Counted from the first letter of the stretch, positions 35,650 to 51,516 are shown. The stretch: 64,000 nt of DNA from Chloroflexota bacterium (GCA_038040195.1 JBBPIR010000001.1:489141-553140); one strand, 5' to 3'. Numbers and translations: made by a program. Notes: generated from the letters alone by a model not told the origin.

Positions 35650-36009
35650 ATGGACCAGACCGGGCTGCTCTACGTCCTGGGATTCGGCTTCGCCGCCACG
35701 ACGTTCGTGTTCGGCACGATTCTGTTCTCGTGGCTGATCACGCATCGGCGCAAAGAGGCCCAGAAGGGGCTGCCCTACGAGTGCGGGATCGACACCATCG
35801 GTGACACCTGGTCCCGCTTCGGGCTGGCGTTCTACCTGTACGCCCTGCTGTTCGTGGCCTTCGACGTGGAGATCATCTTCATCTACCTCTGGGCGATCGT
35901 GATTCGCGACCTCACGCTCACCGGCATGATCCTGATGGGGATCTTCCTGGTGGTCCTGATGTACGGCGAGTTCTACGCCTGGAAGAAGGGTGACCTGAAA
36001 TGGCGATAA
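35650..36009 (+). CDS. nuoA: NADH-quinone oxidoreductase subunit A
   Basis: 119 aa, 3 TM, PYECG motif. Confidence 0.85.
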
Positions 36010-36629
36010 CAACCGCTCCCCGAGCTGACGAGCCGATCGTCATCCCCGACGCGGCCGGCGACGATCCGCTGCTGGGCGAGTTCGGGATGGAGAACCACCC
36101 CCAGGGTGGGTTCCATGGCCTGCTGGAGGTCATCCCCACCCGGGCCGATTACATCCTGGACCTGATCCGGGCCAACTCGCTGTGGCCGCTCCTGTCCGGC
36201 CTGTCGTGCTGCGCCATCGAGATGATGAGCACCGCCACCAGCGTCAACGACATCGACCGATTCGGGATGTTCCCGTTCCGCGCCTCGCCGCGCCAGGCTG
36301 ACGTCCTGATCGTGGCCGGCACCCTGACCACCAAGATGGCCGGTCCGCTGGTGCGCCTGTGGCAGCAGATGCCGGAGCCCAAGTGGTGCGTCGCCATGGG
36401 CACCTGCACCACCTCCGGCGGACGCTTCAAGCGCAGCTACAGCGTCGTCCAGGGCGTGGACCGGGTCATGCCGGTCGACGTCTACGTGCCGGGTTGCCCG
36501 CCGCGCCCCGAAGGCCTGATCTACGGGCTGATGAAGCTCCAGGAACTGGTCAAGCAACGCCGCGGCCAGTGGGCCACCTATGCCGACCGGGGTCCGGACC
36601 TCCGATCCTGGGAAGGAGACGTGCGCTGA
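36000..36629 (+). CDS. nuoB: NADH-quinone oxidoreductase subunit B
   Basis: [27 protein letters not shown]2 cluster motifs. Confidence 0.85.
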
Positions 36630-37204
36630 GCGCACCGGCCGCGGCGGGCCCGCTGGTCCGGCTGCTGGGCGACCGGCTCGCCGACGCGGCGAGCGAACTG
36701 TGGACCGACGAGGACACGGTCGAGATCCAGGTTCCCCGCGACAAGATCGTCGATTCGCTCCGCACCCTGCGCGACGACGCGGACTTCGGCTTCTTCTTCC
36801 TGGCCGATGCGGCCGCGGTCGACTACGGGGTCGGCAACTGGTTCGAGGTCGTCTACCACCTGTACTCGGACCGCCACCCCACCTGGCTGCGGGTCCGGGT
36901 CAAGGTTGACCGCGAGAATCCGGTGACGCCCAGCATCACCTCGCTGTGGGAAGGGGCGATGTTCCACGAGCGCGAGATGTACGACATGATGGGCATCGTC
37001 TTCGAGGGCAACCGCGACCTGCGGCGGATCTACATGTCGCCGGACTACCGGTCCTTCCCGCAGCGCAAGGACTTCCTGCTCCCCGATGACGCCGCCGATT
37101 CCGCCGCCGCCGGCAACCGCCCGCTGGAGCGGCCCGAGACCTGGGACCTGAGCAAGCTGGCGGACGCCGCCGCGCACCGCGACGAGCCGGGAGGCCCGGT
37201 GTGA
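36569..37204 (+). CDS. nuoC: NADH-quinone oxidoreductase subunit C (30 kDa)
   Basis: [29 protein letters not shown]; start uncertain (GTG 36569 overlapping nuoB, no canonical start right after nuoB stop). Confidence 0.75.
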
Positions 37205-38484
37205 CGACCACCAAGCCGCCGCAAGCTGAGGACGCGGAGGAGCCACGCTCCGACGAGCCGCGCATCCCCGACCCGCTGGTATTGGACGCCATGGCCACCG
37301 GCGCGCCGCGCCAGGAGTTCTTCGGCTTCGACATCGTCCCGCCCCCCGACCGGCCGCCCCAGACCGAGCGCGAGCAGGAGGTCTACACCCTCGGCGACGG
37401 CGAAATGCTCGTCAACATGGGCCCCCAGCACCCCTCCACCCACGGCGTGATGCGCCTGGTGGTCAAGGTCCGCGGCGAGGTGGTCATCGACATCGACCCT
37501 GTGCTCGGCTACCTGCACCGAGGGATCGAGAAGCTGTGCGAAGAGGCCACCTACACCACGGTCCTGACCTACGTGGACCCCATGGACTACATGTCGGCCA
37601 TGCACAACGAGCACGCGCCGGCGATCGCGTTCGAGAAGCTGTACGGGATCCAGGCACCGCGCCGGGCGGAGTACATCCGGGCCCTGGTGGTCGAGCTGAA
37701 CCGGGTGTTCAGCCACGGCCTGATGATGGGCTTCCTGGCGCTCGACATCGGCGGCCTGACTCCCATCCTGTACGGCTTCATCAACCGCGACGAGGTGGTC
37801 GAGATGCTGGCCGCCATCTCCGGCCAGCGGATGCTGTTCAACTTCTTCCGAGTGGGCGGCGTGAACTTCGACACCAATGACGAGTTCATGTCGCGCCTCG
37901 GCCGATGGCGGGCCAACGTCCTGGACAACGTCGAGATGAACGAGAAGATCCTGACCGATAACGAGATCTTCCGGGCTCGGACCAGGGGGATGGGCACCCT
38001 GAGCGGCAAGGAAGCGATAGCTCTGGGGGTCAGCGGACCCAATCTGCGGGCCAGCGGGGTGCCGTTCGACGTCCGCAAGGCCCACCCGTACTGCATCTAC
38101 AACGAGCTCGAGTTCGACGTCATCACCCACACCGAGGGCGACACCTATGCCCGCTACATGCAGCGCATCGCGGAGCTGAAGCAGTCCATCCACCTTATCG
38201 ACCAGATCGTGGACAAGATGCCCCACGGCCCGGTCCAGGCCCAGGTGCCGGGGATCATCCGCCCTCGCCCCGGACGCGCCTATGCGGCCATCGAGTCGCC
38301 CCGTGGGCTGTACAGCGTGTACGCCATCAGCGACGGCGGCCCGAACCCGTATCGGTTCCGCATGCGCGACCCGAGCTTCATCAGCCTGCAGGTCATGCCC
38401 AAGCTCATGCCCGGGCACCTCATCGCCGACACCATGGCGATCATGGCCAGCCTGGATCCGATCATGGGCGGCGTGGACAAGTAG
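37201..38484 (+). CDS. nuoD: NADH-quinone oxidoreductase subunit D (49 kDa)
   Basis: 427 aa; MGPQHPSTHGVMRL, full-length NuoD. Confidence 0.9.
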   Translation: MTTTKPPQAEDAEEPRSDEPRIPDPLVLDAMATGAPRQEFFGFDIVPPPDRPPQTEREQEVYTLGDGEMLVNMGPQHPSTHGVMRLVVKVRGEVVIDIDPVLGYLHRGIEKLCEEATYTTVLTYVDPMDYMSAMHNEHAPAIAFEKLYGIQAPRRAEYIRALVVELNRVFSHGLMMGFLALDIGGLTPILYGFINRDEVVEMLAAISGQRMLFNFFRVGGVNFDTNDEFMSRLGRWRANVLDNVEMNEKILTDNEIFRARTRGMGTLSGKEAIALGVSGPNLRASGVPFDVRKAHPYCIYNELEFDVITHTEGDTYARYMQRIAELKQSIHLIDQIVDKMPHGPVQAQVPGIIRPRPGRAYAAIESPRGLYSVYAISDGGPNPYRFRMRDPSFISLQVMPKLMPGHLIADTMAIMASLDPIMGGVDK

Positions 38485-38493
38485 GGGGCCGAA

Positions 38494-39513
38494 ATGGATC
38501 CGGCGACCATCGAAACCCTGCTCGGCGTCGGCCGTTTCGTGGCGGCAACGACCCTGCTGCTGCTGCTGACCGTGCCGACCGCGTTCATCGTGGGCCAGCT
38601 GGAGCTGAAGATCATCGCCCTCATGCAGCTCCGCTACGGCCCCAACCGGGTCGGCCCGCGCGGGATGTTCCAGAGCGCGATCCACGGCTTCAAGATCCTG
38701 GCCAAGGAGGACCAGACGCCGGATCGAGCCGACGTCCCGGTCTTCACCCTGGCGCCGTGGATGGTGTTCATGGCGGCCGCCATGAGCATGCTGGTCATCC
38801 CGTTCGCCCCGGGCCTTGTGGCCTTCGACTCCGACATCGGCGTCATCTACTTCTTCGCCATCATCGGTCTGTCGGTGGTCGGGATGCTGGTCGCCGGTTG
38901 GGCCAGCTACAACAAGTACGCGCTGCTGGGCGGGCTGCGGAGTGCGGCCCAAATGGTCAGCTACGAGATCCCGTTGACCCTGTCCATCGTGGGCGTGGTG
39001 GTCCTGACCGGGACGTTGTCGTTCACCCACATCGTCGAATGGCAGCTGGAGCACGGCTGGGCGGTCATCTGGCAGCTGGTCGGCTTCCCGATCTTCTTCA
39101 TCGCCGCCGCCGCGGAGATCAACCGCACCCCGTTCGACATGGTGGAGGCCGATTCGGAGATCGTGGCCGGCCCGTTCACCGAGTACTCGGGCATGCGATT
39201 CGGTTTCTTCTATTTTGCGGAGTACGTCGCACTTTTCATCATGTGCGGCATCCTGGTCACCCTCTTCTTCGGCGGGTGGCTGGCGCCGTGGCCCTTCCCG
39301 GCCCAGCTGGACGGCTTCGCCGGCACCGTCTACGGCCTGGTCTGGTTCTTCCTGAAGACGTACATCTTCGTGTTCATCGCGATCTGGGTGCGGGCTACCC
39401 TGCCCCGCGTGCGAGTCGACCAGCTCATGGGCATGGCCTGGAAGGCGCTCCTCCCGCTGGCGCTCATCAATCTGTTCGTGACCGCCGCGGTGGTCCTGAT
39501 CTTCAAGCTGTGA
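38494..39513 (+). CDS. nuoH: NADH-quinone oxidoreductase subunit H
   Basis: 339 aa, 8 TM, RYGPNRVGP and FFYFAEY motifs; follows nuoD directly (no nuoEFG between). Confidence 0.9.
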   Translation: MDPATIETLLGVGRFVAATTLLLLLTVPTAFIVGQLELKIIALMQLRYGPNRVGPRGMFQSAIHGFKILAKEDQTPDRADVPVFTLAPWMVFMAAAMSMLVIPFAPGLVAFDSDIGVIYFFAIIGLSVVGMLVAGWASYNKYALLGGLRSAAQMVSYEIPLTLSIVGVVVLTGTLSFTHIVEWQLEHGWAVIWQLVGFPIFFIAAAAEINRTPFDMVEADSEIVAGPFTEYSGMRFGFFYFAEYVALFIMCGILVTLFFGGWLAPWPFPAQLDGFAGTVYGLVWFFLKTYIFVFIAIWVRATLPRVRVDQLMGMAWKALLPLALINLFVTAAVVLIFKL

Positions 39514-39524
39514 TGGCCTGACAC

Positions 39525-40373
39525 ATGGCGATCCCCGGCTCCGGCCTGCTCACCGGCATGGGCGTCACCCTGCGCAACCTCTTCCGCCCCAAGGTGACGC
39601 AGCAGTACCCCGAGGTGCGCCCCGCCATGGCGGAGCGTTGGCGGGGTCGGCTGGACCTGATCTACGACCCGTTCGGGGAGCACAAGTGCGAGGTCTGCTT
39701 CCAGTGCGCCATGGTGTGCCCGGTGGAAGCCATTGACATGAGCGGCTTCGACTCGCAGGGCAACAAGATCCGATACGGGCTGCCCGAGATCTACGACGAG
39801 CGCCGGGACCCCAACGCCTTCCGACGGGCCGGCCTTCCATCCAGACCGATGCGCAACGCGGCGCGCTGGGAGGAAGCGGTAGATGACGCCTGGGTCGACC
39901 AGGTCGTAGATGGATTTGGCGGGCGTCCGGAGTCGCTGGTGGCCATCTTCGTCGCGGTCCAGACCCGATACGGGTACCTGCCCGAGCCCGCGTTGCGCCG
40001 GATCAGCGACAGGATGACGATCCACTGGGCCCAGGTCTTCGGGGCTGCCGGGCTGGGCGGCTTCCGGCTGCTGCCGACCGAGGGGCACCTGGTCACGGTG
40101 TGCGACTGCGCCGCGTGCCGCTTCGCCGGAGGCGACAAGCTCCTGGCGGCCCTGGAGGAGGAGCTGGGGGTACGGGCCGGGGAGACGACCGATGACGGCG
40201 CATTCACCCTGGAGACCGATGCGAGCGTGGGAGCGGGCGCGATTGCGCCGGCGGTGCGGATCGACACCCTGGTATACGGGCCGCTCAACGTCGACGAGGC
40301 ACGCCACCTGATCTACGCCCGGCGGGCGGAGAAGTCCCGCGCCGAGAAGCTCGGCGCCGGGGCGAGCGCCTGA
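39525..40373 (+). CDS. fusion: NuoI N-terminal half (one 4Fe-4S motif) + NuoE-like thioredoxin-fold domain with incomplete 2Fe-2S ligand set
   Basis: aa 1-87 match NuoI N-half (TQQYPEVRP, GEHKCEVCFQCAMVCPVEAIDM, RYGLPEIY); remainder matches NuoE (VQTRYGYLPEP, VTVCDCAAC, GETTDDGAFTLE) but the second Cys pair reads TDASVGAG. Confidence 0.65.
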   Translation: MAIPGSGLLTGMGVTLRNLFRPKVTQQYPEVRPAMAERWRGRLDLIYDPFGEHKCEVCFQCAMVCPVEAIDMSGFDSQGNKIRYGLPEIYDERRDPNAFRRAGLPSRPMRNAARWEEAVDDAWVDQVVDGFGGRPESLVAIFVAVQTRYGYLPEPALRRISDRMTIHWAQVFGAAGLGGFRLLPTEGHLVTVCDCAACRFAGGDKLLAALEEELGVRAGETTDDGAFTLETDASVGAGAIAPAVRIDTLVYGPLNVDEARHLIYARRAEKSRAEKLGAGASA

Positions 40374-41729: not shown

Positions 41730-44114
41730 ATGACCTTCGCAGGCAACGGCAACGGGAAAGGCAACAGCAGCATGGTGGGGCCCTTCGAGGACTACGCCCC
41801 CATCTGGCCGGTGGTGCCCGGCACGCGCAAGATTACGGTCACGATCAATGGCCGCCAGGTCCAGGCCGAGGAGGGCCAGACCATCCTCCAGGCCTGTCGG
41901 GTGCTTGGGCTCGAGATCCCCACCCTGTGCTACGAGCCCAAGCTGTCCCCGTACGGTGCCTGCCGGATCTGCGTGGTCGAGGTGGACGGCCAGGACAACA
42001 CGCCCATCTCGTGCGGGACCGACCTCGCCGAGGGGATGGTCATAACCACCCACTCGGAGCGGGTCATCGAGAACCGCCGCCTGGTGCTGGAGCTGATCTT
42101 CTCGGACCACGACGCGTACTGCCTGCCGCCCTGCCAGTTCAAGTGCCCCACCCGGGTCGACATCCCCGGCTACCTGAAAGCCAACGCGGAGGGCAACTGG
42201 GAAGAGGCGACCCGCATCCTGAAGCGCTCGCTCCCCTTCCCGGCCATCCTGGGTCGGGTGTGCCCCGCCCCCTGCGAGACCCACTGCCGGCGCGAAGAGG
42301 TGGACACCGCCATCGCCATCCGCGACTCGCATCGGTACTGCGCCGACCGGGTCCTGGAGGTGGACGCGCCGGCCCCGCTGCCGTGGCCCAAGGAATCGGA
42401 CACCGGGCGCCGGGTGGCGATCGTCGGTTCAGGGCCCGCCGGCATGACGGTGGCCTACTACCTCCAGCTGCGCGGGCATCACTGCGACGTGTTCGAGGCC
42501 GATCCCGAGCAGGGGGGAATGCTCCGCTACGGGATTCCCGAGTACCGCCTGCCCAACGGCTGGATGGACCGCGAGCTGAACCACGTCTGGGAGCTGGGCG
42601 CCACCTTCAAGCCGAACATGCGCCTGGGCCGCGACTTCCACCTGGCCGATCTGGTGGAGCAGGGCTACGACGCCATCTTCGTGGGCATCGGCTGCTACAA
42701 GCCCAACGAGATGGGGATTCCCGGCGAGGACGCCGACGGGACCGTCAACGCGCTGGAGAACCTGTACAACAGCACCCGCGGCATCCCGGTTCCCGCCCTG
42801 AAGGGGGCCAGCGTGGTGGTCATCGGCGGCGGCTTCACGGCCATCGACTGCACCCGGACCTCCCTCCGCCAGGGCGCAGCCGAGGTCAACCTGGTGTACC
42901 GCCGTGACCTGAAGGACATGCCAGCGCAGGACGAGGTCCACGAGGCCGCCGAGGAAGGCGCCAAGGTCACCTTCCAGGCCGCGCCGGTCCGCATCGTGAC
43001 CGATGCCAAGGGCAAGGTGACCGGGGTCGAGTTCCAGAAGATGCACCTGGGCGAGGCCGATGAGAAGGGCCGGCGCCGGCCGGAGCCCATGCCCGGCACC
43101 GAATTCATCATCGAGTGCGACACGGTCCTGGGTGCCATCGGCCAGGGGCCGGAGCTGGCGTGGATCGACTCCGAGCCCGATGAGATCCGCTCCGGGCTGG
43201 AGGTCAGCCGCCAGGGGCGTCTGGTGGCCGATGCGAACACGTTCCGCACAGGCATCCCCAAGATCTTCGCCGCCGGCGACGTGAACCTGGGGGCCACCAC
43301 CGTGGTGGAGGCCATCGGCGACGGTCGGCGGGCGTCGTATGCCATGGACTACTGGCTCCGCGGCCACGACCTGGACGACCCGCAGGTGCGGCGCATGGTG
43401 TCCGAGCCGCAGCCCTCGTTCCTGACCATCGTGCCCTTCACCGACGACGTGAAGGAGCCCCAGGCGGTGATGGGCAAGCTGGGCGCTGAGGAACGGCGCA
43501 CGAACTTCGAAGAGTACGAGCACGGCTACACCCACGACCAGGCCATGGGCGAGGCCGCCCGCTGCCTGCAGTGCACGTGCGAGGCGATTGGCCACTGCGA
43601 CCTGCGCGAGGCGGCCATCGAGTACGAGACCACCCTGAACATGACGATCGACGAGCGGTCGATCCAGGACAACCCGTATGTCGGCATCAACCACGGCTAC
43701 GGCCGGGACGAGACCCACTCGTTCATCCTGCGCGATTACTCGCGCTGCATCGATTGCGGCCGATGCGCCCAGGTGTGCAAGGACATCGTGGGCGCCGGGT
43801 GCTACGACTTCATCGGAAAGGGCTTCGACTCGCTGGTTACGACCGCCGATTACGTCTCGTTGAACGAAACGCCGTGCGTGTCATGCGGGCGGTGCGCGGA
43901 GACGTGCCCGGTGGGGGCGCTCATGCCGCGGCCGCGGATCCTGGAGACGTACCAGCTCGACGTGAGCCGCTGCATCTTCTGCGGCATCTGCGCCGACGCC
44001 TGCCCCTACGACGCGCTCCGCTGCGGCCCGGAGTTTGAGTTCAGCGAGTACCAGCGCGACCTGCCCATGCTCGACATCCTCGAGATGTCCGACCGGGAGC
44101 GCCCCACCCGCTAG
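41730..44114 (+). CDS. multidomain fusion: NuoG-N-terminal-like 2Fe-2S domain + GltD-like domain (glutamate synthase small chain FAD/NAD(P)H oxidoreductase) + NuoG N4-like 4Fe-4S region + NuoI C-terminal half
   Basis: 794 aa; ITVTINGRQVQAEEGQTILQACRVLGLEIPTLCYEP...GACRICVVEV (2Fe-2S); GltD N-terminal Fe-S YCLPPCQFKCP and GRVCPAPCETHC; RVAIVGSGPAGMTVAYYL, VVVIGGGFTAIDC, IFAAGD; CIDCGRCAQVC...CVSCGRCAETCPVGALMP (NuoG N4-like); SRCIFCGICADACPYDALRCGPEFEFSEY (NuoI C-half). Confidence 0.65.
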   Translation: MTFAGNGNGKGNSSMVGPFEDYAPIWPVVPGTRKITVTINGRQVQAEEGQTILQACRVLGLEIPTLCYEPKLSPYGACRICVVEVDGQDNTPISCGTDLAEGMVITTHSERVIENRRLVLELIFSDHDAYCLPPCQFKCPTRVDIPGYLKANAEGNWEEATRILKRSLPFPAILGRVCPAPCETHCRREEVDTAIAIRDSHRYCADRVLEVDAPAPLPWPKESDTGRRVAIVGSGPAGMTVAYYLQLRGHHCDVFEADPEQGGMLRYGIPEYRLPNGWMDRELNHVWELGATFKPNMRLGRDFHLADLVEQGYDAIFVGIGCYKPNEMGIPGEDADGTVNALENLYNSTRGIPVPALKGASVVVIGGGFTAIDCTRTSLRQGAAEVNLVYRRDLKDMPAQDEVHEAAEEGAKVTFQAAPVRIVTDAKGKVTGVEFQKMHLGEADEKGRRRPEPMPGTEFIIECDTVLGAIGQGPELAWIDSEPDEIRSGLEVSRQGRLVADANTFRTGIPKIFAAGDVNLGATTVVEAIGDGRRASYAMDYWLRGHDLDDPQVRRMVSEPQPSFLTIVPFTDDVKEPQAVMGKLGAEERRTNFEEYEHGYTHDQAMGEAARCLQCTCEAIGHCDLREAAIEYETTLNMTIDERSIQDNPYVGINHGYGRDETHSFILRDYSRCIDCGRCAQVCKDIVGAGCYDFIGKGFDSLVTTADYVSLNETPCVSCGRCAETCPVGALMPRPRILETYQLDVSRCIFCGICADACPYDALRCGPEFEFSEYQRDLPMLDILEMSDRERPTR

Positions 44115-44155: not shown

Positions 44156-44560
44156 ATGACCGATCTTCCCCAGCAGCCGATCGAGATGATCCTGCTCCGC
44201 CAGCTGTCGGAGCACCTGTCCATTCCGATGTGGGTCATCGACGGCGAGGGGGATCTCGTCTTTTTCAACGAGGCGGCCGAGCCGACCCTCGGCGTGCGGG
44301 CCGACGACGTTGACCAGATGCCGTTCGAGACCTGGACCACGTCCTTCCGGCCCCGGGATCTATCGGGCAATCCGCTGCCGCCCGAGGCGCTGCCCCCGAT
44401 CATCGCGCTGCGAAAGGGGGAACCGGCCCATGCCACGATCGAGATCACGGGCGGGGATGGGGTCGCGCGCCGGATCGGCGTCACCGCCTTCCCGCTGACC
44501 GGCGGCCACGGCGACATCATGGGCTCGGTGACGATGTTCTGGGAGTCCCCCAAGGCGTGA
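44156..44560 (+). CDS. PAS domain protein
   Basis: 134 aa single PAS-like fold (PMWVIDGEGDLVFFNEAAE...GGHGDIMGSV). Confidence 0.5.
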   Translation: MTDLPQQPIEMILLRQLSEHLSIPMWVIDGEGDLVFFNEAAEPTLGVRADDVDQMPFETWTTSFRPRDLSGNPLPPEALPPIIALRKGEPAHATIEITGGDGVARRIGVTAFPLTGGHGDIMGSVTMFWESPKA

Positions 44561-45432: not shown

Positions 45433-45975
45433 GTGAGCGCTCGGTCTCGAACGGGAGCCTCGACTCTGGACATCTCGACCGTCCTCTTCGTGGTGCTCGC
45501 CGCCGGCGTCCTCGGCGGCGGCCTGGCGGCCGTCCTGCTGCGGAACGTGATCCATTCCGCGGTGGCCATGATGGTCTCTTTCGGAGCCCTGGCGGGCACG
45601 TACGCCCTGCTCGGCGCGCCCATCGTGGCCGCCGCCCAGGTCCTCATCTACCTGGGGGCCATCAGCGTCCTGATCCTGTTCGCGATCATGCTGACCCAGG
45701 CCGGCGACGCCAACCTGCCGGCACCTTTCCAGCGCCAGGCGCCGTTCGCGGCCCTGGTCGCCATCGGGATCGTGGCCCTCGTCGGTTGGGCCCTGCTCCA
45801 GACCGACTGGCCCAACCCCAGCGTGATCATCCCGGTCGAGCTCGACGCCCTGGCCGCCGCCCTCTTCAACGACTACGCGCTGCCGTTCGAGATCGTGGGC
45901 TTCCTGTTGCTGGCCGCCATCATCGGCGCCATCTACCTCGCCCGACGGCCCGAAGAAGACGAGCGGATGAACTGA
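45433..45975 (+). CDS. nuoJ: NADH-quinone oxidoreductase subunit J
   Basis: 180 aa, 5 TM, VLIYLGAISVLILFAIML. Confidence 0.8.
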   Translation: MSARSRTGASTLDISTVLFVVLAAGVLGGGLAAVLLRNVIHSAVAMMVSFGALAGTYALLGAPIVAAAQVLIYLGAISVLILFAIMLTQAGDANLPAPFQRQAPFAALVAIGIVALVGWALLQTDWPNPSVIIPVELDALAAALFNDYALPFEIVGFLLLAAIIGAIYLARRPEEDERMN

Positions 45976-45978
45976 CCG

Positions 45979-46287
45979 ATGGGCCTCAACGGCTACCTGT
46001 TCCTGTCACTCGCCCTGTTCGGGATCGGGGCCTTCGGCTTCCTGGCCCGACGCAACGCGATCATGATGCTGATCTGCATCGAGCTCATGTTGAACGCGGT
46101 CAACCTGGCCCTGGTGGCCTTCAACGCGTTCGATTATTACGCCACCGATGACGCGGGCGCCGTCTTCTCGCTGCTCGTGATGGCCGTCGCGGCAGCCGAG
46201 GCGACGGTCGGCCTGGCCCTGGTCATCGCGATCATCCGCACCCGTCAGACCGCCGAGGTCGACGACTACGCCGATCTGAAGGAGTAA
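45979..46287 (+). CDS. nuoK: NADH-quinone oxidoreductase subunit K
   Basis: 102 aa, 3 TM, conserved Glu in CIELMLNAVNL and AAAEATVGLALV. Confidence 0.85.
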   Translation: MGLNGYLFLSLALFGIGAFGFLARRNAIMMLICIELMLNAVNLALVAFNAFDYYATDDAGAVFSLLVMAVAAAEATVGLALVIAIIRTRQTAEVDDYADLKE

Positions 46288-46354: not shown

Positions 46355-48529
46355 GTGCTGGTTGGGCCGCGCTTCGACCGCATTCCGGAGCACGCCGAGC
46401 ACGATGACGAGCACGGCGCCGGGGCCGGTCACGACACGGGCGGCGACGCGCACGCCTCCCACGCCGAGGCGGTCGACGAGTCCGGGTACCGCGGCGTCCC
46501 GACCGAGGAGGAGCAGCGCGAGACCTCGCCCCACCGGGGCCACGCCGACGACCTGGCCAACGCCAACGGGGCCGATGGGATCATCCCCGACGAGCTGAAC
46601 GACGGGCGCGGGCAGCCCGGTCACGTGACGCCCGGCGGGCCGCGGCCGGTCTACCGCTCGTGGTGGGTCCCGGTCGCATTGGTGGCCGTGGCCTGGGCCG
46701 CGTCAATGGCCATCTTCGGCGCGGTCATCTTCGGAGGCGCCGAGTACCGGGTCACCGTCTACGAGTGGATCGTGTCGGGTGATTTCCGGATCGAGATCAC
46801 GTTCTTCGTGGACGCGCTGACCGCGGTCCTGCTGCTGGTGGTCAGCACGGTGGGCCTGCTGGTCCACGTCTATTCCATCGGCTACATGGACGGCGACCGC
46901 AGCGTCTGGCGCTTCTTCGCCTACCTGAACCTGTTCATGTTCAGCATGCTGCTGCTGATCCTGGCCGACAACTTCCTGCTCCTGTACGTGGGCTGGGAGG
47001 CGGTCGGCCTGTGCTCGTACCTCCTCATCGGCTACTGGTACAAGAAGCCGTCCGCGGCAGGAGCCGCCAAGAAGGCGTTCATCGTCAACCGGGTCGGCGA
47101 CTTCGGTTTCGGGCTGGGCGTGATCCTGATCTGGACCCTGCTCGGCACGCTGACGTTCGACGAGGTGTTCGCGGGGATCGGCGGCCTCGAGGGCTGGCAG
47201 ATCACCCTCATCGCCCTGCTCCTGTTCGCAGGGGCAGTGGGCAAGAGCGCCCAGTTCCCGCTGCACGTCTGGCTCCCGGACGCGATGGAGGGCCCCACCC
47301 CGGTCAGCGCCCTCATCCACGCCGCGACCATGGTCAACGCCGGGGTGTACCTGGTCGCCCGCGCCAACCCGATCTTTGCCCACTCGCCGGAGGCAATGGG
47401 CGTGGTGGTCGCGATCGGGGTGTTCACCGCCGTCCTGGCGGCGGCCATTGCGGTCACCCAGAACGACATCAAGAAGGTGCTGGCCTACTCGACCGTCAGC
47501 CAGCTGGCGTACATGTTCTTCGGGCTGGGGATCGGGGCCTGGGCGGCGGCCATCTTCCACCTGCTGACCCACGGCTTCTTCAAGGGCCTGCTGTTCATGG
47601 CTTCCGGATCGGTCATCCACGGGGCCGGCGGGGAGCAGGACATGCGCTTCATGGGCGGCCTCCGGGAACGCATGCGCTGGACGTACGGGACCATGCTCGT
47701 GGGGGCCCTGGCGCTGGCCGGGATCCCGATCTTCGCGGGGTTCTTCAGCAAGGACGAGATCCTGTCGGAGGCCTTCGCCCGCGGCTACCCGATCTACTGG
47801 GCGGTGGGCATCGGGGTCGCGTTCCTGACCGCGTTCTACACCTTCCGGATGATCTTCATGACCTTCCACGGCTCGTGGCGCGGGCCGGCGGCCGCCTGGA
47901 AGCACGTCCACGAGAGCGCGCGGACGATGGTCGCGCCGCTCGTCATCCTGGCCGTCCCTACCGCGCTGGCCGGGCTCCTGCTGGGCATTCCGCCCGAGGG
48001 CGGCACGATCCATCTGTGGCTGGAGGAGGTCTTCGCCAGTGCTGAGGGGCTCGGGGCCGGTATCCAGCCCGGCTCGATCCTGGCGGAGGCCATGGAGCAC
48101 GGGGAGGCGCACGGCTTCGAGCTGTTCGGCCTTGGCGGGCTGCTGCTGCTGGCCGGGGCGTCGGTCGGCCTGGCCGGCATCCTGCTCGCCCGGCGCTGGT
48201 ACATCCAGGATCCCGAGGCGCCCGCGCGTTTTGTGGAGCGCTTCCCGTTCGGGCTGGGGCCGGGCATGTACCGGGCCAGCCTGAACAAGTACTACTTCGA
48301 CGACCTGTACCAGCTCATCTTCGCTCGCGGCGGCGTGGTGCTTTCAAATGCCCTGTGGTGGTTCGACGTGAAGGTCATCGACGGGGCGGTGAACGGCGTC
48401 GGCTGGTTGGCCCAGCGCCTGGGCGGCGGGTTGCGCAGGTCCCAGACCGGGCGGGTCCAGAACTACGGATTGGGGATCGCGGCCGGGTTGGTCATCGTCC
48501 TGCTGGTCTATGCCACGGTGGTGCGCTGA
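46355..48529 (+). CDS. nuoL: NADH-quinone oxidoreductase subunit L (with atypical His/acidic-rich insertion; start uncertain)
   Basis: 724 aa; antiporter-like core plus long C-terminal helix region; TM1-like sequence appears in a different frame just upstream. Confidence 0.8.
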   Translation: MLVGPRFDRIPEHAEHDDEHGAGAGHDTGGDAHASHAEAVDESGYRGVPTEEEQRETSPHRGHADDLANANGADGIIPDELNDGRGQPGHVTPGGPRPVYRSWWVPVALVAVAWAASMAIFGAVIFGGAEYRVTVYEWIVSGDFRIEITFFVDALTAVLLLVVSTVGLLVHVYSIGYMDGDRSVWRFFAYLNLFMFSMLLLILADNFLLLYVGWEAVGLCSYLLIGYWYKKPSAAGAAKKAFIVNRVGDFGFGLGVILIWTLLGTLTFDEVFAGIGGLEGWQITLIALLLFAGAVGKSAQFPLHVWLPDAMEGPTPVSALIHAATMVNAGVYLVARANPIFAHSPEAMGVVVAIGVFTAVLAAAIAVTQNDIKKVLAYSTVSQLAYMFFGLGIGAWAAAIFHLLTHGFFKGLLFMASGSVIHGAGGEQDMRFMGGLRERMRWTYGTMLVGALALAGIPIFAGFFSKDEILSEAFARGYPIYWAVGIGVAFLTAFYTFRMIFMTFHGSWRGPAAAWKHVHESARTMVAPLVILAVPTALAGLLLGIPPEGGTIHLWLEEVFASAEGLGAGIQPGSILAEAMEHGEAHGFELFGLGGLLLLAGASVGLAGILLARRWYIQDPEAPARFVERFPFGLGPGMYRASLNKYYFDDLYQLIFARGGVVLSNALWWFDVKVIDGAVNGVGWLAQRLGGGLRRSQTGRVQNYGLGIAAGLVIVLLVYATVVR

Positions 48530-50057
48530 CATGAGCGGCCTGCCGGTGCTGTCGCTGATCGTCTTCACGCCGCTGCTCGGCGTGGCGGCCCTGCTGTTCG
48601 TGCCGGGCACCAACCATCGGCTCATCCGCTGGGTGGCCCTGCTGGCGGCCATGGGAAGCCTGGGCTTCAGCCTATTCCTGGTGGGCTACGACCCCGCCGG
48701 GGCGGAGTTCCAGTTCCGCGAGGACCTTCCCTGGATCAGCGCATTCGGGATCCGCTACCAGCTGGGGGTGGACGGCATGAGCGCAGTGCTGGTGCTGCTC
48801 ACCACGGTCCTGAGCGTGGTCAGCATCCTGTACTCCTGGGGGCCGATCCAGATGCGGGTCAAGGAGTACTACGCCGCGATGCTGCTCCTGATGGCCGGCA
48901 TGCTCGGCGTCTTCGTGGCGCTCGACCTGTTCGTGTTCTACGTTTTTTGGGAGCTGAGCCTGATCCCGATGTACCTGGTGATCGGGATCTGGGGTGGGCC
49001 GCAGCGCATTTACGCCACGCTGAAGTTCGTCATCTACACGCTGGTCGGCTCGCTCCTCATGCTGGTCGCCATCCTGGCCGTGGTCATCGCCAACGCCAAC
49101 CTCCCGGGCGGGACGTTCACGTTCAGCTACGAGGCCCTGCGCGGCGTCCCCTTCCCCGATCTGCTCCAGGCTGGCGCATTCATCGCGTTCGGGCTGGCCT
49201 TTGCCATCAAGGTACCGATGTGGCCGTTCCACACCTGGCTGCCCGATGCTCACGTGGAGGCCCCGACCGCGGGCTCCATCATCCTGGCCGGGGTCCTGCT
49301 CAAGCTGGGCGGCTACGGGTTCCTGCGATTCAGCCTGCCGCTGCTGCCCGACGCGGCCCAGTCCTTCGCGCCGCTCATGATCGGCCTGGCCTTGATCGCC
49401 ATCATGTATGGCGCGCTGGTGGCCATGGTCCAGCCCGATCTGAAGAAGCTGATCGCCTACTCGAGCGTGTCGCACATGGGCTTCGTGATGCTGGGGGCGT
49501 TCGTCTTCAACACCCAGGGCCTGCAGGGCGCGATCTTCCAGATGGTCAGCCACGGGATCACGACCGGCGCCCTGTTCCTCTTGGTGGGCGTCATCTATGA
49601 ACGCACCCACGACCGGCTGATCAGCCACATGGGCGGTCTGAACGCCCGCCTGCCGGCCTACGCCGCCCTGTTCGGGCTGTTCACCTTCGCGAGCATCGGC
49701 TTACCAGGCTTGTCGGGGTTCGTGGGCGAGTTCCTGGTCATGCTCGGCGCTTTCCAGTACTCGGCCTGGGTGGGGGCCTGGGCCATGCTGGTCGTGATAG
49801 CCAGCGCGGTCTACATGCTGTGGATGTTCCAGCGCGCCTTCTTTGCCGTGCCGTCGGACTGGATGCGCCGGGCCTGGGGCGGCCTGCATGACCTGACCCG
49901 GGTCGAGTGGCTGTCGCTGGCCCCACTGGTGGTCCTGGTGGTGGCACTGGGGGTGTTCCCGGCCCCCGTCCTGGAGGCCACCGCCGGGCCGGTGCAGCGC
50001 ATCCTCGACGCGGTCCAGGGCGCCGCGGGGCTCAACCTGGTCGCCTGGCCGTGGTGA
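48510..50057 (+). CDS. nuoM: NADH-quinone oxidoreductase subunit M
   Basis: 515 aa antiporter-like, WLPDAHVEAPTAGS motif. Confidence 0.85.
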   Translation: MPRWCADMSGLPVLSLIVFTPLLGVAALLFVPGTNHRLIRWVALLAAMGSLGFSLFLVGYDPAGAEFQFREDLPWISAFGIRYQLGVDGMSAVLVLLTTVLSVVSILYSWGPIQMRVKEYYAAMLLLMAGMLGVFVALDLFVFYVFWELSLIPMYLVIGIWGGPQRIYATLKFVIYTLVGSLLMLVAILAVVIANANLPGGTFTFSYEALRGVPFPDLLQAGAFIAFGLAFAIKVPMWPFHTWLPDAHVEAPTAGSIILAGVLLKLGGYGFLRFSLPLLPDAAQSFAPLMIGLALIAIMYGALVAMVQPDLKKLIAYSSVSHMGFVMLGAFVFNTQGLQGAIFQMVSHGITTGALFLLVGVIYERTHDRLISHMGGLNARLPAYAALFGLFTFASIGLPGLSGFVGEFLVMLGAFQYSAWVGAWAMLVVIASAVYMLWMFQRAFFAVPSDWMRRAWGGLHDLTRVEWLSLAPLVVLVVALGVFPAPVLEATAGPVQRILDAVQGAAGLNLVAWPW

Positions 50058-50064
50058 GACCGGT

Positions 50065-51516
50065 ATGAACGACCCCGCGGCGCTGTACGCGCTCCTGCCC
50101 GAGGTGGCCCTGGCCATCTCGGTCCTGGTGATCATCACCGTCGACCTGTTCCTTCCCCGGGAGCGCAAGTGGCTGCTGACCCCGCTGACCGTGGCCGGCC
50201 TGGCGGCCACCGCGCTGGCCATCGGCGCGGTCTGGACCACCCCGCCCAGCGGGGCGTTGGCGGGAGGGGTCTATACCGTGGACCGGCTGGCGCTGGTGCT
50301 GAAGCTGGCGGCGGTCGGTATCGGCGTGTTGACGACCCTGTTCGCGCCGGGCTACCTGGTCGTCCGCCGCCTGCCGTTGGGCGAGTTCAACGCCATCCTG
50401 CTGTTCTCGACCCTGGGCATCTTCGTCCTGGCCAGCAGCGCGGATCTCATCACCCTGTTCCTCGGCCTCGAGCTGATGGTCATGCCAGCCTACCTGCTGG
50501 CCGCCTTCCACAAGACCGATCGGTTCAGCAACGAGGGCGGGCTGAAGTACTTCCTGCTCGGGTCATTTGCGAGCGCCATCCTCCTGTTCGGCATCGCCTG
50601 GACCTACGGCCTGACCGGCTCGACCGTGTTCACCGAGATCGCCGAGGTGTTCTCGGGCGGCTTGATGAACGGGGCGGTGCTGGTGGCGATCGGCTTCCTG
50701 ACCGTGGGGGCGACCTTCAAGGCGGCGGCGGTGCCGTTCCACTTCTGGACTCCGGACGCCTACCAGGGCGCCCCGACGCCCATCACCGGGTTCCTGTCAG
50801 TAGGCCCCAAGCTGGGGGCCTTTGCCCTGCTGCTGCGCCTCTTCGGGGAAGCGCTCGGCCCGTTGCGCACCGACTGGCTGGACGTGTTCGTCGTGCTGGC
50901 GGTGGTGACCATGACGTTTGGCAACGTGGTGGCCCTGACCCAGACCAACGTCAAGCGGATGCTGGCCTACTCCTCGATCGCCCATACCGGCTACATCCTG
51001 GCCGGGCTGGCGGCGTTTGCAGCAGCCACAGATCCAAAGGTTGCCACCGAGGCCATCGAGGCGGTCGTGTTCTACCTGGTCGGCTACTCGGTGATGAACA
51101 TCGCGGCTTTCGCGGTGGTCGGCATGCTGCAGCGCGACGTGCGCCGATACGGCGGATTGGGCTCATTCGCGGGCCTGGCCGGGCGTCAGCCGGCCCTGGC
51201 CGCAGCCATGACCGTCCTGCTCCTGTCGCTGACGGGCATCCCGCCCACGGTCGGGTTCTTTGCCAAGCTGTACGTCCTGCTGACGTCGGTCGACGCGGGC
51301 CTGGCCTGGCTGGCGGTGGCCATCGCCCTGAATGCCGCCCTGGCCGCGTTCTACTACCTGCGGGTGGTGGTCTACATGTACATGCGTGACCCGGAGGCTG
51401 AGCCGGCGGATGTGGAGCGCTCCGGGGTCGGCCGCCTGGCGCTGGGACTCAGCGTGGCCGGCGTGCTCCTGCTCGGCATCTTCCCCGGCATCCTGCTCGG
51501 GTGGCTGCCGGCTTGA
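50065..51516 (+). CDS. nuoN: NADH-quinone oxidoreductase subunit N
   Basis: 483 aa antiporter-like, FHFWTPDAYQGAPTP. Confidence 0.85.
   Translation: MNDPAALYALLPEVALAISVLVIITVDLFLPRERKWLLTPLTVAGLAATALAIGAVWTTPPSGALAGGVYTVDRLALVLKLAAVGIGVLTTLFAPGYLVVRRLPLGEFNAILLFSTLGIFVLASSADLITLFLGLELMVMPAYLLAAFHKTDRFSNEGGLKYFLLGSFASAILLFGIAWTYGLTGSTVFTEIAEVFSGGLMNGAVLVAIGFLTVGATFKAAAVPFHFWTPDAYQGAPTPITGFLSVGPKLGAFALLLRLFGEALGPLRTDWLDVFVVLAVVTMTFGNVVALTQTNVKRMLAYSSIAHTGYILAGLAAFAAATDPKVATEAIEAVVFYLVGYSVMNIAAFAVVGMLQRDVRRYGGLGSFAGLAGRQPALAAAMTVLLLSLTGIPPTVGFFAKLYVLLTSVDAGLAWLAVAIALNAALAAFYYLRVVVYMYMRDPEAEPADVERSGVGRLALGLSVAGVLLLGIFPGILLGWLPA

Follow-up and report, generated by a model that had tools for sequence, protein, structure and literature searches.

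Which kind of electron input does a complex I operon have if the protein at its NuoG position also carries a glutamate-synthase-small-chain (GltD)-like flavoprotein unit and a piece of NuoI? A preliminary description, made from the DNA alone, had proposed an alternative electron-input flavoprotein wired into complex I. The 794-aa protein (X) is encoded by a stop-free reading frame and belongs to an operon of 13 nuo genes with the order nuoA-B-C-D-H-[NuoI N-half::NuoE]-NuoF-[X: StnC-like::NuoI C-half]-J-K-L-M-N (Table 1). The operon comes from Candidatus Limnocylindria (Chloroflexota), and X probably occupies the NuoG position in an unusual complex I. nuoH is located directly 3' of nuoD as in 11-gene nuo operons, and the membrane and Q modules are complete within this one operon (NuoA, B, C, D, H and J called by Pfam; NuoK, L, M and N called by orthology to the annotated locus L081). 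Reading of the sequences revealed the N2 ligands in NuoB and the quinone-site His and Tyr in NuoD, and on these residues the Q module appears functional. A separate nuoI or nuoG was absent from the operon, and no further copy of nuoI, nuoG, nuoE or nuoF was found within the 64-kb window (the whole stretch of DNA analysed, 64,000 nucleotides). This search covered the window, and the same organisms may encode a second, canonical complex I elsewhere.

Table 1. Coordinates of the nuo operon, of domains within its fused proteins and of two inserted genes.
Feature	Position	Strand	Residues	Basis or remark
nuoA	35650..36009	+		Pfam Oxidored_q4, E 7e-32
nuoB	36000..36629	+		Pfam Oxidored_q6; N2 cluster cysteines intact (SCCAIEM, GTC, GCPP)
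nuoC	36626..37204	+	123-242 of ORF starting 36359	Pfam Complex1_30kDa; start approximate; mechanical ORF from 36359 runs out of frame over nuoB
nuoD	37201..38484	+		Pfam Complex1_49kDa, E 1e-84; GPQHPSTHG and quinone-site Tyr region present
nuoH	38494..39513	+		Pfam NADHdh, E 2e-110
NuoI N-terminal half (I_N)	39525..39806	+	1-94 of 282-aa 'NuoE' protein	
NuoE/StnA/HydC-like thioredoxin-type 2Fe-2S domain	39870..40316	+	116-264 of 282-aa protein	Pfam 2Fe-2S_thioredx
NuoF-like FMN subunit, 448 aa	40373..41719	+		Stn/Hyd-like in sequence
X, StnC/NfnA-like subunit fused to NuoI C-half, 794 aa	41730..44114	+		
X 2Fe-2S domain (N1b/A1 equivalent)	41826..42056	+	33-109	Pfam Fer2_4
X GltD/NfnL-like unit	42108..43364	+	127-545	Fer4_20, Pyr_redox_2, TIGR01318
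X Cys-rich linker EAARCLQCTCEAIGHC	43542..43604	+	605-625	alignment to 9bov_A, 8oh5_C
X HydA/StnC-type 2x[4Fe-4S] ferredoxin domain	43725..43928	+	666-733	Fer4_Nqo3, Fer4_7, Fer4_21
NuoI C-terminal half (I_C)	43941..44111	+	738-794 of X	TIGR01971, PDB NuoI chains
PAS-domain protein, 134 aa	44156..44560	+		Pfam PAS_8, PAS, PAS_9
metallo-beta-lactamase-fold protein, 281 aa	44557..45402	+		Pfam Lactamase_B_2
nuoJ	45433..45975	+		Pfam Oxidored_q3
nuoK	45979..46287	+		L081 orthologue has PF00420; synteny
nuoL	46355..48529	+		L081 orthologue has Proton_antipo_N/M; synteny
nuoM	48510..50057	+		L081 orthologue has Proton_antipo_M; synteny
nuoN	50065..51516	+		L081 orthologue has Proton_antipo_M; synteny

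All motifs quoted in the preliminary description were located in the translation of X: YCLPPCQFKCP (residues 130-140), GRVCPAPCETHC (175-186), RVAIVGSGPAGM (228-239), VVVIGGGFTAIDC (362-374), IFAAGD (512-517), CIDCGRCAQVC (673-683) and CPVGALMP (726-733). The domain order given there agrees with the Pfam and NCBIfam domains, X being composed of a 2Fe-2S domain, a complete GltD-like FAD/NADPH unit, a Cys-rich linker, a two-cluster ferredoxin domain and the NuoI C-half. The GltD homology was borne out by domain searches, in which Fer4_20 (132-210, E 2e-20) and Pyr_redox_2 (228-532, E 7e-27) exceeded the Pfam cutoffs and TIGR01318 spanned residues 133-543 (E 5e-97); NfnB (4ylf_B) matched the same unit with E 8e-91. 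Equivalog cutoffs for GltD were not reached (TIGR01318, 325 versus 483; TIGR01317, 220 versus 448), PRK12814 scored 555 versus a cutoff of 916, and no gltB partner gene was present among the neighbours of X. Pfam further recognised Fer2_4 (33-109, E 1.5e-21) and three Fer4 motifs reaching residue 764. In an AF2 model, pLDDT was about 60-95 over the GltD/NfnL-like unit and below 30 for residues 615-794.

The predicted cluster ligands of the GltD-like unit are H127/C131/C135/C139, C178/C182/C186 and H201, and motifs for an FAD site (GSGPAG) and an NADPH site (GGGFTAID...YRR) are present. Residues G233/G235/P236/G238, G366-G368, F369, D373 and Y390-R391-R392 were invariant in 61 homologues. The motif H127xxxC131xxxC135xxxC139 has GltD-type spacing and not that of NuoG N5 (HxxxCxxCxxxxxC). 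Cysteines C67, C78, C81 and C95 of the 2Fe-2S domain were invariant in the homologue alignment, and those of the linker (C612, C615, C617, C623) were kept in 119 of 120 homologues. The NuoG model TIGR01973 matched residues 37-131 only (98 bits versus a cutoff of 470), the His-cluster model NADH-G_4Fe-4S_3 gave a 17-residue fragment, and Fer4_Nqo3 on residues 666-731 stayed sub-threshold. The region formerly described as N4-like is instead a predicted HydA/StnC-type two-cluster ferredoxin domain (motif A, C673/676/679/683; motif B, C716/719/722/726-P; aligned to StnC 610-700), and the N5 His-cluster is missing. The molybdopterin-like domain is absent, as had been noted; no Pfam match to Molybdopterin or Molydop_binding was obtained in X, which ends at residue 794.

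The arrangement of a GltD unit within a NuoG-like protein is not new, because residues 33-758 of X are collinear with solved StnC/NfnA and thus have their architecture. In phmmer searches, this segment aligned to residues 2-699 of Caldicellulosiruptor saccharolyticus (Csac) NfnA (9bov_A; E 6e-169, 38% identity) and to StnC (8oh5_C; E 2e-147), where the match ends at about residue 700 of 1172; Thermococcus sibiricus (Tsi) NfnA (9n5u_A) was likewise collinear. 9bov_A and 8oh5_C were also the top Foldseek matches. X is therefore best read, by its sequence, as a recruited StnC/NfnA homologue and not as a modified complex I NuoG. StnC/NfnA is the NADPH-input subunit of Bfu-type NADPH:NAD/ferredoxin transhydrogenases (PMC10482914, PMC11829005). 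X has the domain set of this subunit as found in Sporomusa ovata StnABC (8OH5), Csac NfnABC (9BOV) and Tsi NfnABC (9N5U), including the GltD/NfnL-like FAD/NADPH unit inserted at the identical point, with 35-38% identity. There are also differences. Where StnC/NfnA has its Fdh-like domain (about 470 aa, clusters A4/A5), X has the NuoI C-half of 57 aa. At the FAD-proximal [4Fe-4S] cluster, the Lys ligand of StnC (K170), reported in the StnC literature as strictly conserved, is H201 in X and invariant in 120 homologues. Finally, StnABC and NfnABC are soluble three-gene units (PMC10482914, PMC11829005), whereas the genes studied here lie inside a nuo operon. The electron path of Csac NfnABC runs FAD-A7-A6-A3-A2-A1-B1-FMN; the branch A2-A4-A5, located in the Fdh-like domain, is a dead end, and NfnC has its N-terminal domain packed against this Fdh-like domain (PMC11829005). 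The fusion points of both NuoI halves map to the Fdh-like domain. In Stn, the Fdh-like domain mediates tetramerisation, and its deletion blocked purification of active complex (PMC10482914).

The NuoI C-half had already been recognised at the C-terminus of X, where NuoI models cover residues 714-777; the NuoI N-half at the N-terminus of NuoE had been overlooked. I_N carries the YPE...RxRGR signature and the first motif, C55xxC58xxC61xxxC65P. All of its 37 PDB matches were chains of the NuoI/TYKY/NdhI family (one deposited as an Mbh subunit), and it aligned to residues 8-89 of 8e9g_I with E 7e-12. I_C (LETYQLDVSRCIFCGICADACPYDAL...FEFSEYQRDL; motif C748/751/754/758-P) matched PDB NuoI chains with E of about 1e-12 and aligned to the complementary residues 83-127 of 8e9g_I. 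On the NuoI profile TIGR01971, I_N covered positions 1-72 (54 bits) and I_C positions 71-112 (59 bits); when rejoined, they scored 106.1 bits in one stretch (profile 1-112 of 121; cutoff 113.05). No single ORF qualified as a whole NuoI (TIGR01971/PRK05888), each half being below the cutoff of 113. The I_N cysteines were invariant in 121 homologues and the I_C motif was invariant too, which makes eight cysteines in all. Single-sequence structure prediction of an I_N+I_C chimera gave a pLDDT of 37. By these alignments, nuoI is split around the entire E-F-X cassette, and the gene order seen is the one expected if an stnABC-like cassette had been inserted in frame into the nuoI gene of an 11-gene operon. 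In the literature, no paper was found that describes a three-gene dehydrogenase cassette inside nuoI as electron-input wiring of complex I. The novelty is this operon context and not the GltD-in-NuoG architecture.

The partners of X resemble the same enzymes. The best PDB matches of NuoE were NfnC, HydC and StnA, ahead of true Nuo subunits. NuoF scored 381-322 bits with StnB, Csac NfnB, Tsi NfnB and HydB over the core 107-525, compared to 266 bits with true NuoF. On the equivalog models, NuoE scored 62 versus a cutoff of 142 (TIGR01958) and NuoF 325 versus 559 (TIGR01959). NuoF contains only Complex1_51K, SLBB and NADH_4Fe-4S and aligns to residues 107-525 only of StnB and Csac NfnB. Besides FMN and B1, bifurcating BfuB has a thioredoxin-like 2Fe-2S domain at its N-terminus and a 2x[4Fe-4S]/Zn domain at its C-terminus (B2-B5); since NuoF lacks both, no ferredoxin bifurcation is expected. 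The ligands in the NuoE domain are non-canonical (C193, C195, C198, D/E/S234), N1a being without both C-terminal cysteines in all Limnocylindria sequences. The N3 motif of NuoF is CGKAVPC, or CGKA(V/I)PC across Limnocylindria sequences, with Ala or Thr for the middle cysteine in 68 of 68. Motif NADE is changed to NLMG, and NNVET to HNGET. Invariant in NuoF are the Gly-rich FMN loop GRGG.G(F/Y)..KW, GEET, PPYP and three N3 cysteines. Because the clusters near FMN have non-canonical ligands, the NADH site is perhaps altered or inactive. Functional [3Fe-4S] clusters classically show this CxxAxxC pattern as well, and in distant lineages that share the split NuoI the NuoE/F ligands are fully canonical. 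The proposal of an alternative electron input holds for the GltD unit, but NuoE and NuoF are kept in Stn/Hyd-like form; as both are still present, the GltD unit is an additional input and not necessarily a replacement.

A survey of relatives detected the architecture of X in more than 100 full-length homologues. Among the matches listed were at least 120 homologues (794-890 aa, 58-93% identity, 95-100% query cover), and the X loci of 80 species genomes were 84-96% identical. The Fe-S cysteines of X were invariant or nearly so. Gene order was kept in about 70 Candidatus Limnocylindria genomes and more distant lineages, at every sufficiently long locus of the 80 species genomes, and in a clade with 59% identity. 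The order D/H-[I_N::E]-F recurs in lineages in which I_N::E is only 26-38% identical; for two of these, the presence of X or of a subunit carrying I_C was also confirmed. In the distant lineage L086, nuoJ-N are not downstream of X. Only one protein of the operon was more conserved than X (86%), and NuoF and the NuoE part were the least conserved (about 70-75% identity). Broken reading frames were seen in neighbouring genes of some Nanopore-derived relatives.

The architecture, homology, synteny, conservation and split NuoI observed here support the idea of a GltD-type flavoprotein wired into complex I. There is a reasonably good chance that the X module with the split NuoI is the StnABC/NfnABC-derived input module of the Limnocylindria complex I, joined through the two NuoI halves, and its likely function would be that of a non-bifurcating NAD(P)H:menaquinone complex I. 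Chances seem about even that an in-frame StnABC/NfnABC-like cassette in nuoI of an 11-subunit complex I yielded a proton-pumping NADPH (possibly NADH):menaquinone oxidoreductase. The module (NuoE-like, NuoF-like, X) would have descended from an NADPH/NADH enzyme of the StnABC/NfnABC type (Bfu family) and been placed inside nuoI of an 11-gene-type operon (A-B-C-D-H-I-J-K-L-M-N). With the cassette within nuoI, the first NuoI half would therefore be found on the NuoE N-terminus and the second on the X C-terminus, where it would occupy the place of the StnC/NfnA Fdh-like domain. The halves may reassemble to one ferredoxin fold, with N6a and N6b each ligated by cysteines of both polypeptides, which would tether the module to the Q module and complete the wire.

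With respect to cofactor occupancy, NADPH specificity and the path and direction of electrons, we propose that the GltD-like domain would oxidise NADPH at its FAD and that its two [4Fe-4S] clusters would pass electrons to the two-cluster ferredoxin domain of X. Their exit would be the Nfn/Stn dead-end branch (A2 to A4), now N6a/N6b, leading to N2 (NuoB) and menaquinone, the reduction of which would drive proton pumping. This route presupposes transfer from the X ferredoxin domain to N6a. In canonical complex I, N6a receives its electrons from the N5 His-cluster, which is missing here. NuoF FMN, via N3 and the X 2Fe-2S cluster, would be a second, NADH-side entry if still active. With two nucleotide sites open on a single Fe-S chain, NADH and NADPH would tend towards equilibrium unless the chain is gated. 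If the proposal is true, complex I acquired a nucleotide-oxidising N-module by a second, independent route, two separate polypeptides build the N6a/N6b ferredoxin fold, and what was a dead-end Fe-S branch in a soluble transhydrogenase became the main exit wire.

The same parts might also constitute a dedicated NADPH:quinone complex I with the GltD-like FAD as sole entry, in which NuoE/NuoF would be a scaffold with an inactive or re-purposed FMN/NADH site. This would agree with the N3 substitution in all 68 sequences, the two lost N1a cysteines, the replacement of the acidic NADE and of NNVET, the lower conservation of NuoF and the NuoE part relative to X, and NuoF and NuoE scores well under the NCBIfam equivalog cutoffs. 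We consider it unlikely, however, as the invariant FMN loop, GEET, PPYP and three N3 cysteines argue for a retained cofactor site, the altered N3 motif also fits a functional [3Fe-4S] cluster, and the distant split-NuoI lineages are canonical in NuoE/F. Alternatively, the module could mainly make NADPH as a membrane-anchored, non-bifurcating Stn/Nfn descendant, electrons passing from NADH (FMN) or quinol (pmf-driven reverse flow) to the GltD FAD and NADP+. Its ancestors are reversible NADH/ferredoxin:NADP+ transhydrogenases (PMC10482914, PMC11829005, PMC9304861), one Fe-S chain bears both nucleotide sites, and for mbx-like operons, in which GltD-like flavoproteins replace NuoI, it was proposed that these proteins serve as the NAD(P)+-reducing exit (PMC4758237). 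Yet the full set of pumping subunits and the intact quinone site fit a forward respiratory enzyme, the source MAGs are mostly from aerobic soil and freshwater according to record titles, and NuoF has no ferredoxin-binding C-terminal domain. Transfer from NADH to NADP+ without ferredoxin or pmf input is, moreover, unfavourable at physiological ratios, and we regard this role as rather improbable.

It is very improbable that NuoE-F-X is a soluble, cytoplasmic Stn-like enzyme merely sharing the operon of an 11-subunit-type complex I with another donor. Solubility of StnABC and NfnABC and the occurrence of A-B-C-D-H-I-J-K-L-M-N operons in Chloroflexi (PMC3144371) would suit such an arrangement, but it would leave the operon without NuoI, the sole NuoI sequence being the halves on NuoE and X. 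Neither half, nor any of the eight cysteines, varies, and X has no Fdh-like domain, which was needed for purifying active Stn complex (PMC10482914). An assembly or frameshift artefact joining GltD-like, NuoG-like and NuoI genes, a possibility raised in the preliminary description and suggested by the broken frames near some Nanopore-derived loci, has a negligible probability and is effectively refuted. Full-length ORFs with the same domain order are found in over 100 independent homologues and in 80 species genomes that come from different projects, these homologues (58-96% identity) keep every or nearly every Fe-S cysteine, and the I_N::E fusion is likewise recurrent.

Canonical 14-subunit complex I (T. 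thermophilus Nqo, E. coli Nuo) shares with the present system all membrane and Q-module subunits, N2 ligands, quinone-site residues, a NuoE/NuoF/NuoG-position module and the NuoI motifs. The present system departs from the canonical enzyme in having NuoI divided over two other subunits and an additional FAD/NADPH site; its G-position subunit lacks the N5 His-cluster and the Fdh-like domain, H precedes E, and NuoE, NuoF and the G-position protein are far under the NCBIfam Nuo cutoffs. In concept, a complex I with a non-standard electron-input module is shared with FpoF-containing Fpo and Campylobacter/Helicobacter Nuo, where NuoE/F are swapped for unrelated proteins (FpoF; Cj1575c/1574c) and NuoI is intact; neither is known to have a GltD-type module.

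In the 'Nuo-Bfu' complexes predicted in Geobacter, Planctomycetes and Nitrospirae (Schut et al. 2022, PMC9304861), a Bfu-related E/F/G module also replaces the canonical N-module in the middle of the nuo cluster. Those clusters are described as having 14 subunits (A-N), with a BfuBC core that is intact and bifurcating and a BfuA that is not of the Nfn type, and NuoI is not mentioned in that paper; here, the A subunit is of the Nfn type (GltD insert), the bifurcation domains are missing from the B subunit, and NuoI comes as two halves. When the E-F-X cassette is removed and the NuoI halves are rejoined, the backbone order equals that of the 11-subunit 'ancestral' operons nuoA-B-C-D-H-I-J-K-L-M-N reported in Chloroflexi (Moparthi & Hagerhall 2011, PMC3144371), which have an intact nuoI and no dehydrogenase module. 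With mbx-like operons (Degli Esposti 2015, PMC4758237) the present operon shares a GltD-type NAD(P)(H) flavoprotein tied to the NuoI position. In those operons the flavoprotein replaces NuoI as the proposed NAD(P)+-reducing exit of a ferredoxin-oxidising complex, whereas here NuoI persists as two pieces, NuoE/F are retained, and the quinone-reducing complex I is complete.

The PAS-domain and metallo-beta-lactamase-fold genes represent an insertion between X and nuoJ that is specific to the closest clade. In the synteny comparison, the PAS gene was found only in loci L001-7, L036 and L046.

Translation of gene X gave an open frame of 794 aa (window G+C, 69.6%), in which all motifs quoted in the preliminary description were found where it had placed them. 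Its assignment of a NuoG-type N-terminal 2Fe-2S domain, a GltD-like unit and a NuoI C-half at the end of the protein agreed with the Pfam and NCBIfam matches (see table), and neither library detected the molybdopterin-type domain that had been described as absent. The NuoG model scored 98 bits (cutoff, 470) and covered the 2Fe-2S domain alone. The C-terminus, LETYQLDVSRCIFCGICADACPYDAL..GPEFEFSEYQRDL, corresponds to the second half of NuoI. The region that had been called N4-like is a StnC-type two-cluster ferredoxin domain. Fer4_Nqo3, the NuoG N4-domain model, and the NuoG His-cluster model both stayed below threshold in Pfam searches.

At least 120 homologues of X were retrieved (794-890 aa, 58-93% identity over 95-100% of the length among the matches listed), and X was present at 84-96% identity in 80 species genomes, nearly all of them Candidatus Limnocylindria/Chloroflexota MAGs. 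An exact-sequence look-up of the window's own protein returned no record. The Fe-S cysteines show little or no variation across the homologues, and the FAD/NADPH fingerprints GSGPAG, GG(M)LRYGIP and GGGFTAID...VYRR are invariant in 61 of them. The number of full-length homologues and genomes, together with the conserved cysteines, rules out that X is a fusion artefact. Within the operon X ranks second in conservation, with a median identity of 86% vs 70-80% for most of the other proteins.

Features of the nuo operon in the window and in related loci (I_N and I_C, N- and C-terminal NuoI halves; I_N::E, fusion of I_N with the NuoE-like domain; L-numbers, genome loci of relatives)
Feature	Location	Source or score	Remarks
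ORF upstream of nuoA	window 34430-35551	GC3-supported	~370 aa
nuoB	window 36000-36629		
nuoC, mechanical ORF	window, from 36359		overlaps nuoB out of frame
nuoD	window 37201-38484		
'nuoE' (I_N::E)	window 39525-40373		282 aa
I_N	'NuoE' residues 7-92	sole PDB match	NuoI/TYKY/Nqo9 N-terminal half
StnA/NfnC/HydC-like part	'NuoE' residues 116-264	PDB search	
N1a ligands	'NuoE' residues 193-238		
nuoF	window 40373-41719		
FMN-site acidic motif	NuoF residues 94-101		
N3 motif	NuoF residues 353-359		CGKAVPC
X	window 41730-44114 (+)	translation	794 aa
Fer2_4	X residues 33-109	Pfam	
Fer4_20	X residues 132-210	Pfam	profile positions 29-110 only
GltD-family models	X residues 133-545	NCBIfam	
Pyr_redox_2	X residues 228-532	Pfam	
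Three CxxCxxCxxxC(P) motifs	X residues 673 to 758	Pfam	
NuoI models	X residues 714-777	NCBIfam	
I_N	TIGR01971 positions 1-72	54 bits	
I_C	TIGR01971 positions 71-112	59 bits	
I_N + I_C, rejoined in silico	TIGR01971 positions 1-112	106 bits (cutoff, 113 bits)	single uninterrupted stretch
PAS-domain and metallo-beta-lactamase-fold genes	window 44156-45402		134 aa and 281 aa
59% clade, X	L081 10001-12628		850-890 aa (P0012-P0120)
L083/L086	L086 4693-13788	I_N::E 26% identical to window	D-H-[I_N::E]-F-X with GltD insert and I_C; in L086 A-B-C-D-H-[I_N::E]-F-X, X 799 aa
L085, L088-L090	L085 5523-11550	I_N::E 38% identical	A-B-C-D-H-[I_N::E], then NuoF with Bfu-like N-terminal thioredoxin-like domain
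L091	L091 1321-6023	I_N::E 35% identical	H-[I_N::E]-[NuoF::GltD fusion, 1048 aa]-[HoxU-like, 265 aa]-J-K-L-M-N
Por-Bfu-type cluster	L087 7819-15933		POR subunits, BfuC, 637-aa BfuB

Over residues 33-758, X was collinear with NfnA of Caldicellulosiruptor saccharolyticus (9bov_A, E 6e-169), StnC of Sporomusa ovata (8oh5_C, E 2e-147) and NfnA of Thermococcus sibiricus (9n5u_A, E 2e-139). When full-length X was modelled by AF2 (61 homologues) and the model submitted to Foldseek, the same three structures again came first. In this model the GltD core was good and residues 615-794 had a pLDDT < 30, so that it holds no information on the packing of the ferredoxin domain and I_C. StnC and NfnA are the NADPH-input (BfuA) subunits of Bfu-type NADPH:NAD+/ferredoxin transhydrogenases; in both, a GltD/NfnL-like FAD/NADPH unit is inserted between a 2Fe-2S domain and a NuoG-like remainder (PMC10482914, PMC11829005, PMC9304861). 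The design noted in the preliminary description, i.e. GltD inserted into a NuoG-like protein, is thus present in X but not new, because StnC and NfnA have exactly this topology up to the Fdh-like (molybdopterin-fold) domain. Unlike these proteins, X lacks the ~470-aa Fdh-like C-terminal domain and ends in the NuoI C-half. In addition, Lys170 of StnC, a reportedly strictly conserved ligand of the FAD-proximal cluster, is replaced by an invariant His (H201) in X.

The operon has the order nuoA, B, C, D, H, 'E', F, X, [PAS, MBL-fold], J, K, L, M, N and is flanked by housekeeping genes (e.g. pdxS/pdxT, tmk and genes for a c-di-AMP receptor and a sortase). Neither a separate nuoG or nuoI nor a further copy of E, F, G or I was found within the 64-kb window. 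The predicted 'NuoE' is ~120 aa longer than expected, and its N-terminal part (I_N) has the NuoI signature VTxQYPE...RxRGR...DP.GE.KC together with the first cluster motif C55xxC58xxC61xxxC65P. I_N and I_C match adjoining parts of the NuoI profile TIGR01971, and the breakpoint between them lies in the loop separating the two halves of the ferredoxin fold. The predicted pairing of motif C of X with the NuoE-borne motif would explain the odd number (three) of ferredoxin motifs in X, which resolve into a StnC-type two-cluster domain (motifs A and B) and the putative partner of the NuoE-borne motif (motif C). A single-sequence AF2 prediction of the I_N + I_C chimera was uninformative (pLDDT 37). 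No close unsplit NuoI relative was present among the representative 130-330-aa matches to I_N; these were frameshifted or fragmentary copies of I_N::E.

Several further features of the operon were recorded. The PAS and MBL-fold genes between X and nuoJ occur in the closest clade only (L001-7, L036, L046), whereas the operon lacks them at ~60 other loci. A clade-specific regulatory or accessory insertion is a possible explanation. The ORF directly upstream of nuoA is not conserved in position in L081, which has an HPPK gene instead, or in L086/L088. NuoB and NuoD have N-terminal extensions of ~40-60 aa rich in Pro, Asp and Glu. Given the out-of-frame overlap with nuoB, the true start of nuoC is probably near position 36626.

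In NfnABC of C. saccharolyticus, electrons follow the path FAD-A7-A6-A3-A2-A1-B1-FMN, and A2-A4-A5 forms a dead-end branch in the Fdh-like domain, which also provides a cleft that receives the N-terminal domain of NfnC (PMC11829005). In the window, I_C begins at the alignment position of the StnC A4 motif, and I_N is placed ahead of the NfnC-like N-terminal domain. Both NuoI halves thus appear, by alignment, to be grafted at the position of the Fdh-like domain, and in the simplest model the reassembled NuoI would replace this domain. Electrons from NADPH would then pass via FAD, the two GltD clusters, the ferredoxin-domain clusters, N6a/N6b and N2 to menaquinone, while those from NADH would enter via FMN, N3 and the 2Fe-2S cluster of X and reach the shared ferredoxin-domain clusters. 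As the canonical N5 cluster is absent, the link to N6a would differ from that in standard complex I. The N2 cysteines of NuoB and the His/Tyr region of NuoD are present, and the Q-module looks competent. NADPH production by reverse flow or transhydrogenation is a less likely role of the enzyme than forward respiration.

On the NADH side, NuoF scored 381 bits against StnB and C. saccharolyticus NfnB, 359-322 bits against T. sibiricus NfnB and Hyd B subunits, and 266 bits against genuine NuoF; 'NuoE' gave the same pattern, favouring the Stn/Nfn/Hyd side. NuoF spans the core of the Stn/Nfn B proteins only (residues 107-525) and is devoid of the extra cluster domains by which bifurcating BfuB is defined (PMC9304861). 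Bifurcation to ferredoxin was therefore rejected and is not expected, given that domains B2-B5 are missing. Of the 68 Limnocylindria sequences, 66 have CGKA(V/I)PC as the N3 motif and two have CGKT(I)PC, so that the second Cys is Ala or Thr in all of them; CGKA(V/I)PC is the classical 3Fe-4S-type pattern. In Limnocylindria the acidic NADE motif of the FMN site is NLMG, and N1a has kept C193 and C198, gained C195 and lost both C-terminal cysteines (D/E/S234 and G238 instead). Both clusters flanking FMN are thus remodelled, and the NADH site may be retuned or inactive. An enzyme working with NADPH only, as the altered N3 and N1a ligands and NADE motif would permit, is nonetheless considered unlikely, since canonical ligands are by and large retained in distant lineages: N1a has all four ligands there (one C-terminal cysteine is retained in the clade with X at 59% identity), and N3 is canonical in L085 and L091, although altered in L086 (CGRCIPG plus an extra CGLC).

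When E-F-X is removed and the NuoI halves are rejoined, the order becomes A-B-C-D-H-I-J-K-L-M-N, as in operons for 11-subunit complex I, which are known from Chloroflexi and further groups (PMC3144371). An stnABC-like cassette (E-like, F-like, StnC-like) inserted once and in frame into nuoI would account for the gene order and both fusions, and the similarity scores support a Stn/Nfn-like origin of this putative cassette. The split-NuoI arrangement is ancient and selectively maintained: each sufficiently long locus of ~70 Limnocylindria species has it unchanged, as does the clade with X at only 59% and NuoE at 39% identity. A search of 1.84 billion representative proteins for I_N::E yielded only a handful of full-length fusion clusters. 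Comparison of these lineages identifies the split NuoI as the constant feature, with the GltD-type module attached in at least two different ways.

Previous work has predicted 14-subunit Nuo-Bfu and Mbh-Bfu complexes (PMC9304861) and described GltD-like flavoproteins in place of NuoI in mbx-like operons (PMC4758237); NuoI is never mentioned in the Bfu family paper (PMC9304861). A non-exhaustive full-text literature search found no description of (i) nuoI split around an input module; (ii) a nuo operon encoding an A subunit of the Nfn type; (iii) a non-bifurcating, trimmed BfuB in a nuo operon. The gene-level finding is solid and surprising to complex I specialists, and the function is predicted from sequence. 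Evolutionary studies have long asked how complex I gained and docked the module through which electrons enter it. The operon resembles a preserved record of such an acquisition, in that a soluble Bfu-type module for NADPH/NADH is covalently joined into NuoI, the connecting subunit. The solution varies among lineages: the G-position subunit has a GltD insert, NuoF and GltD form a fusion, or NuoF is Bfu-like and has an additional N-terminal domain. If active with NADPH, the complex would pump protons while passing electrons from the NADPH pool to quinones, a route missing from canonical complex I. Soils and lakes harbour abundant Candidatus Limnocylindria, whose respiratory entry point is therefore ecologically relevant. 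The divided NuoI would also be a natural 2x[4Fe-4S] ferredoxin fold shared by two subunits, useful for work on how Fe-S wires are assembled and on the engineering of complex I input modules. The system is masked by current annotation names ('FAD-dependent oxidoreductase', 'formate dehydrogenase major subunit' and 'NuoE').

Additional observations concern individual relatives. In the 59% clade, X has a ~55-85-aa tail beyond I_C with a His/Gly/Asn-rich end (GNGHGHG...HAHAR), for which metal binding is one possibility. In L086, the most distant lineage, nuoJ-N were not seen in the remaining 870 bp downstream of X, and a transposase gene lies at the opposite contig end. In L085 and L088-L090, whose contigs all end ahead of the G-position gene, the N-terminal domain of NuoF is of the thioredoxin-like 2Fe-2S type and the N3 and N1a ligands are canonical; the enzyme may be a genuinely bifurcating split-NuoI complex. 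The NuoF of L091 combines an N-terminal thioredoxin-like domain with the C-terminal GltD fusion, in which the second nucleotide-site motif seems degenerate (VIGPVALAAD, no YRR). The adjacent HoxU-like protein contains an authentic N5 His motif and carries I_C as its tail; used as a query, it proved to be a rare variant with only 2 protein clusters, the other matches being ordinary NuoG/Fdh-like proteins. P0291/P0410, considered as a candidate I_N::E fusion, turned out to be BfuC of a Por-Bfu cluster with a ferredoxin-like N-terminus and without the NuoI signature. The Por-Bfu-type cluster of L087 comes from the same metagenome sample as L082, a member of the 59% clade; its BfuC (280 aa) has a single N-terminal ferredoxin-like motif and may be another half-ferredoxin::NuoE-like fusion.
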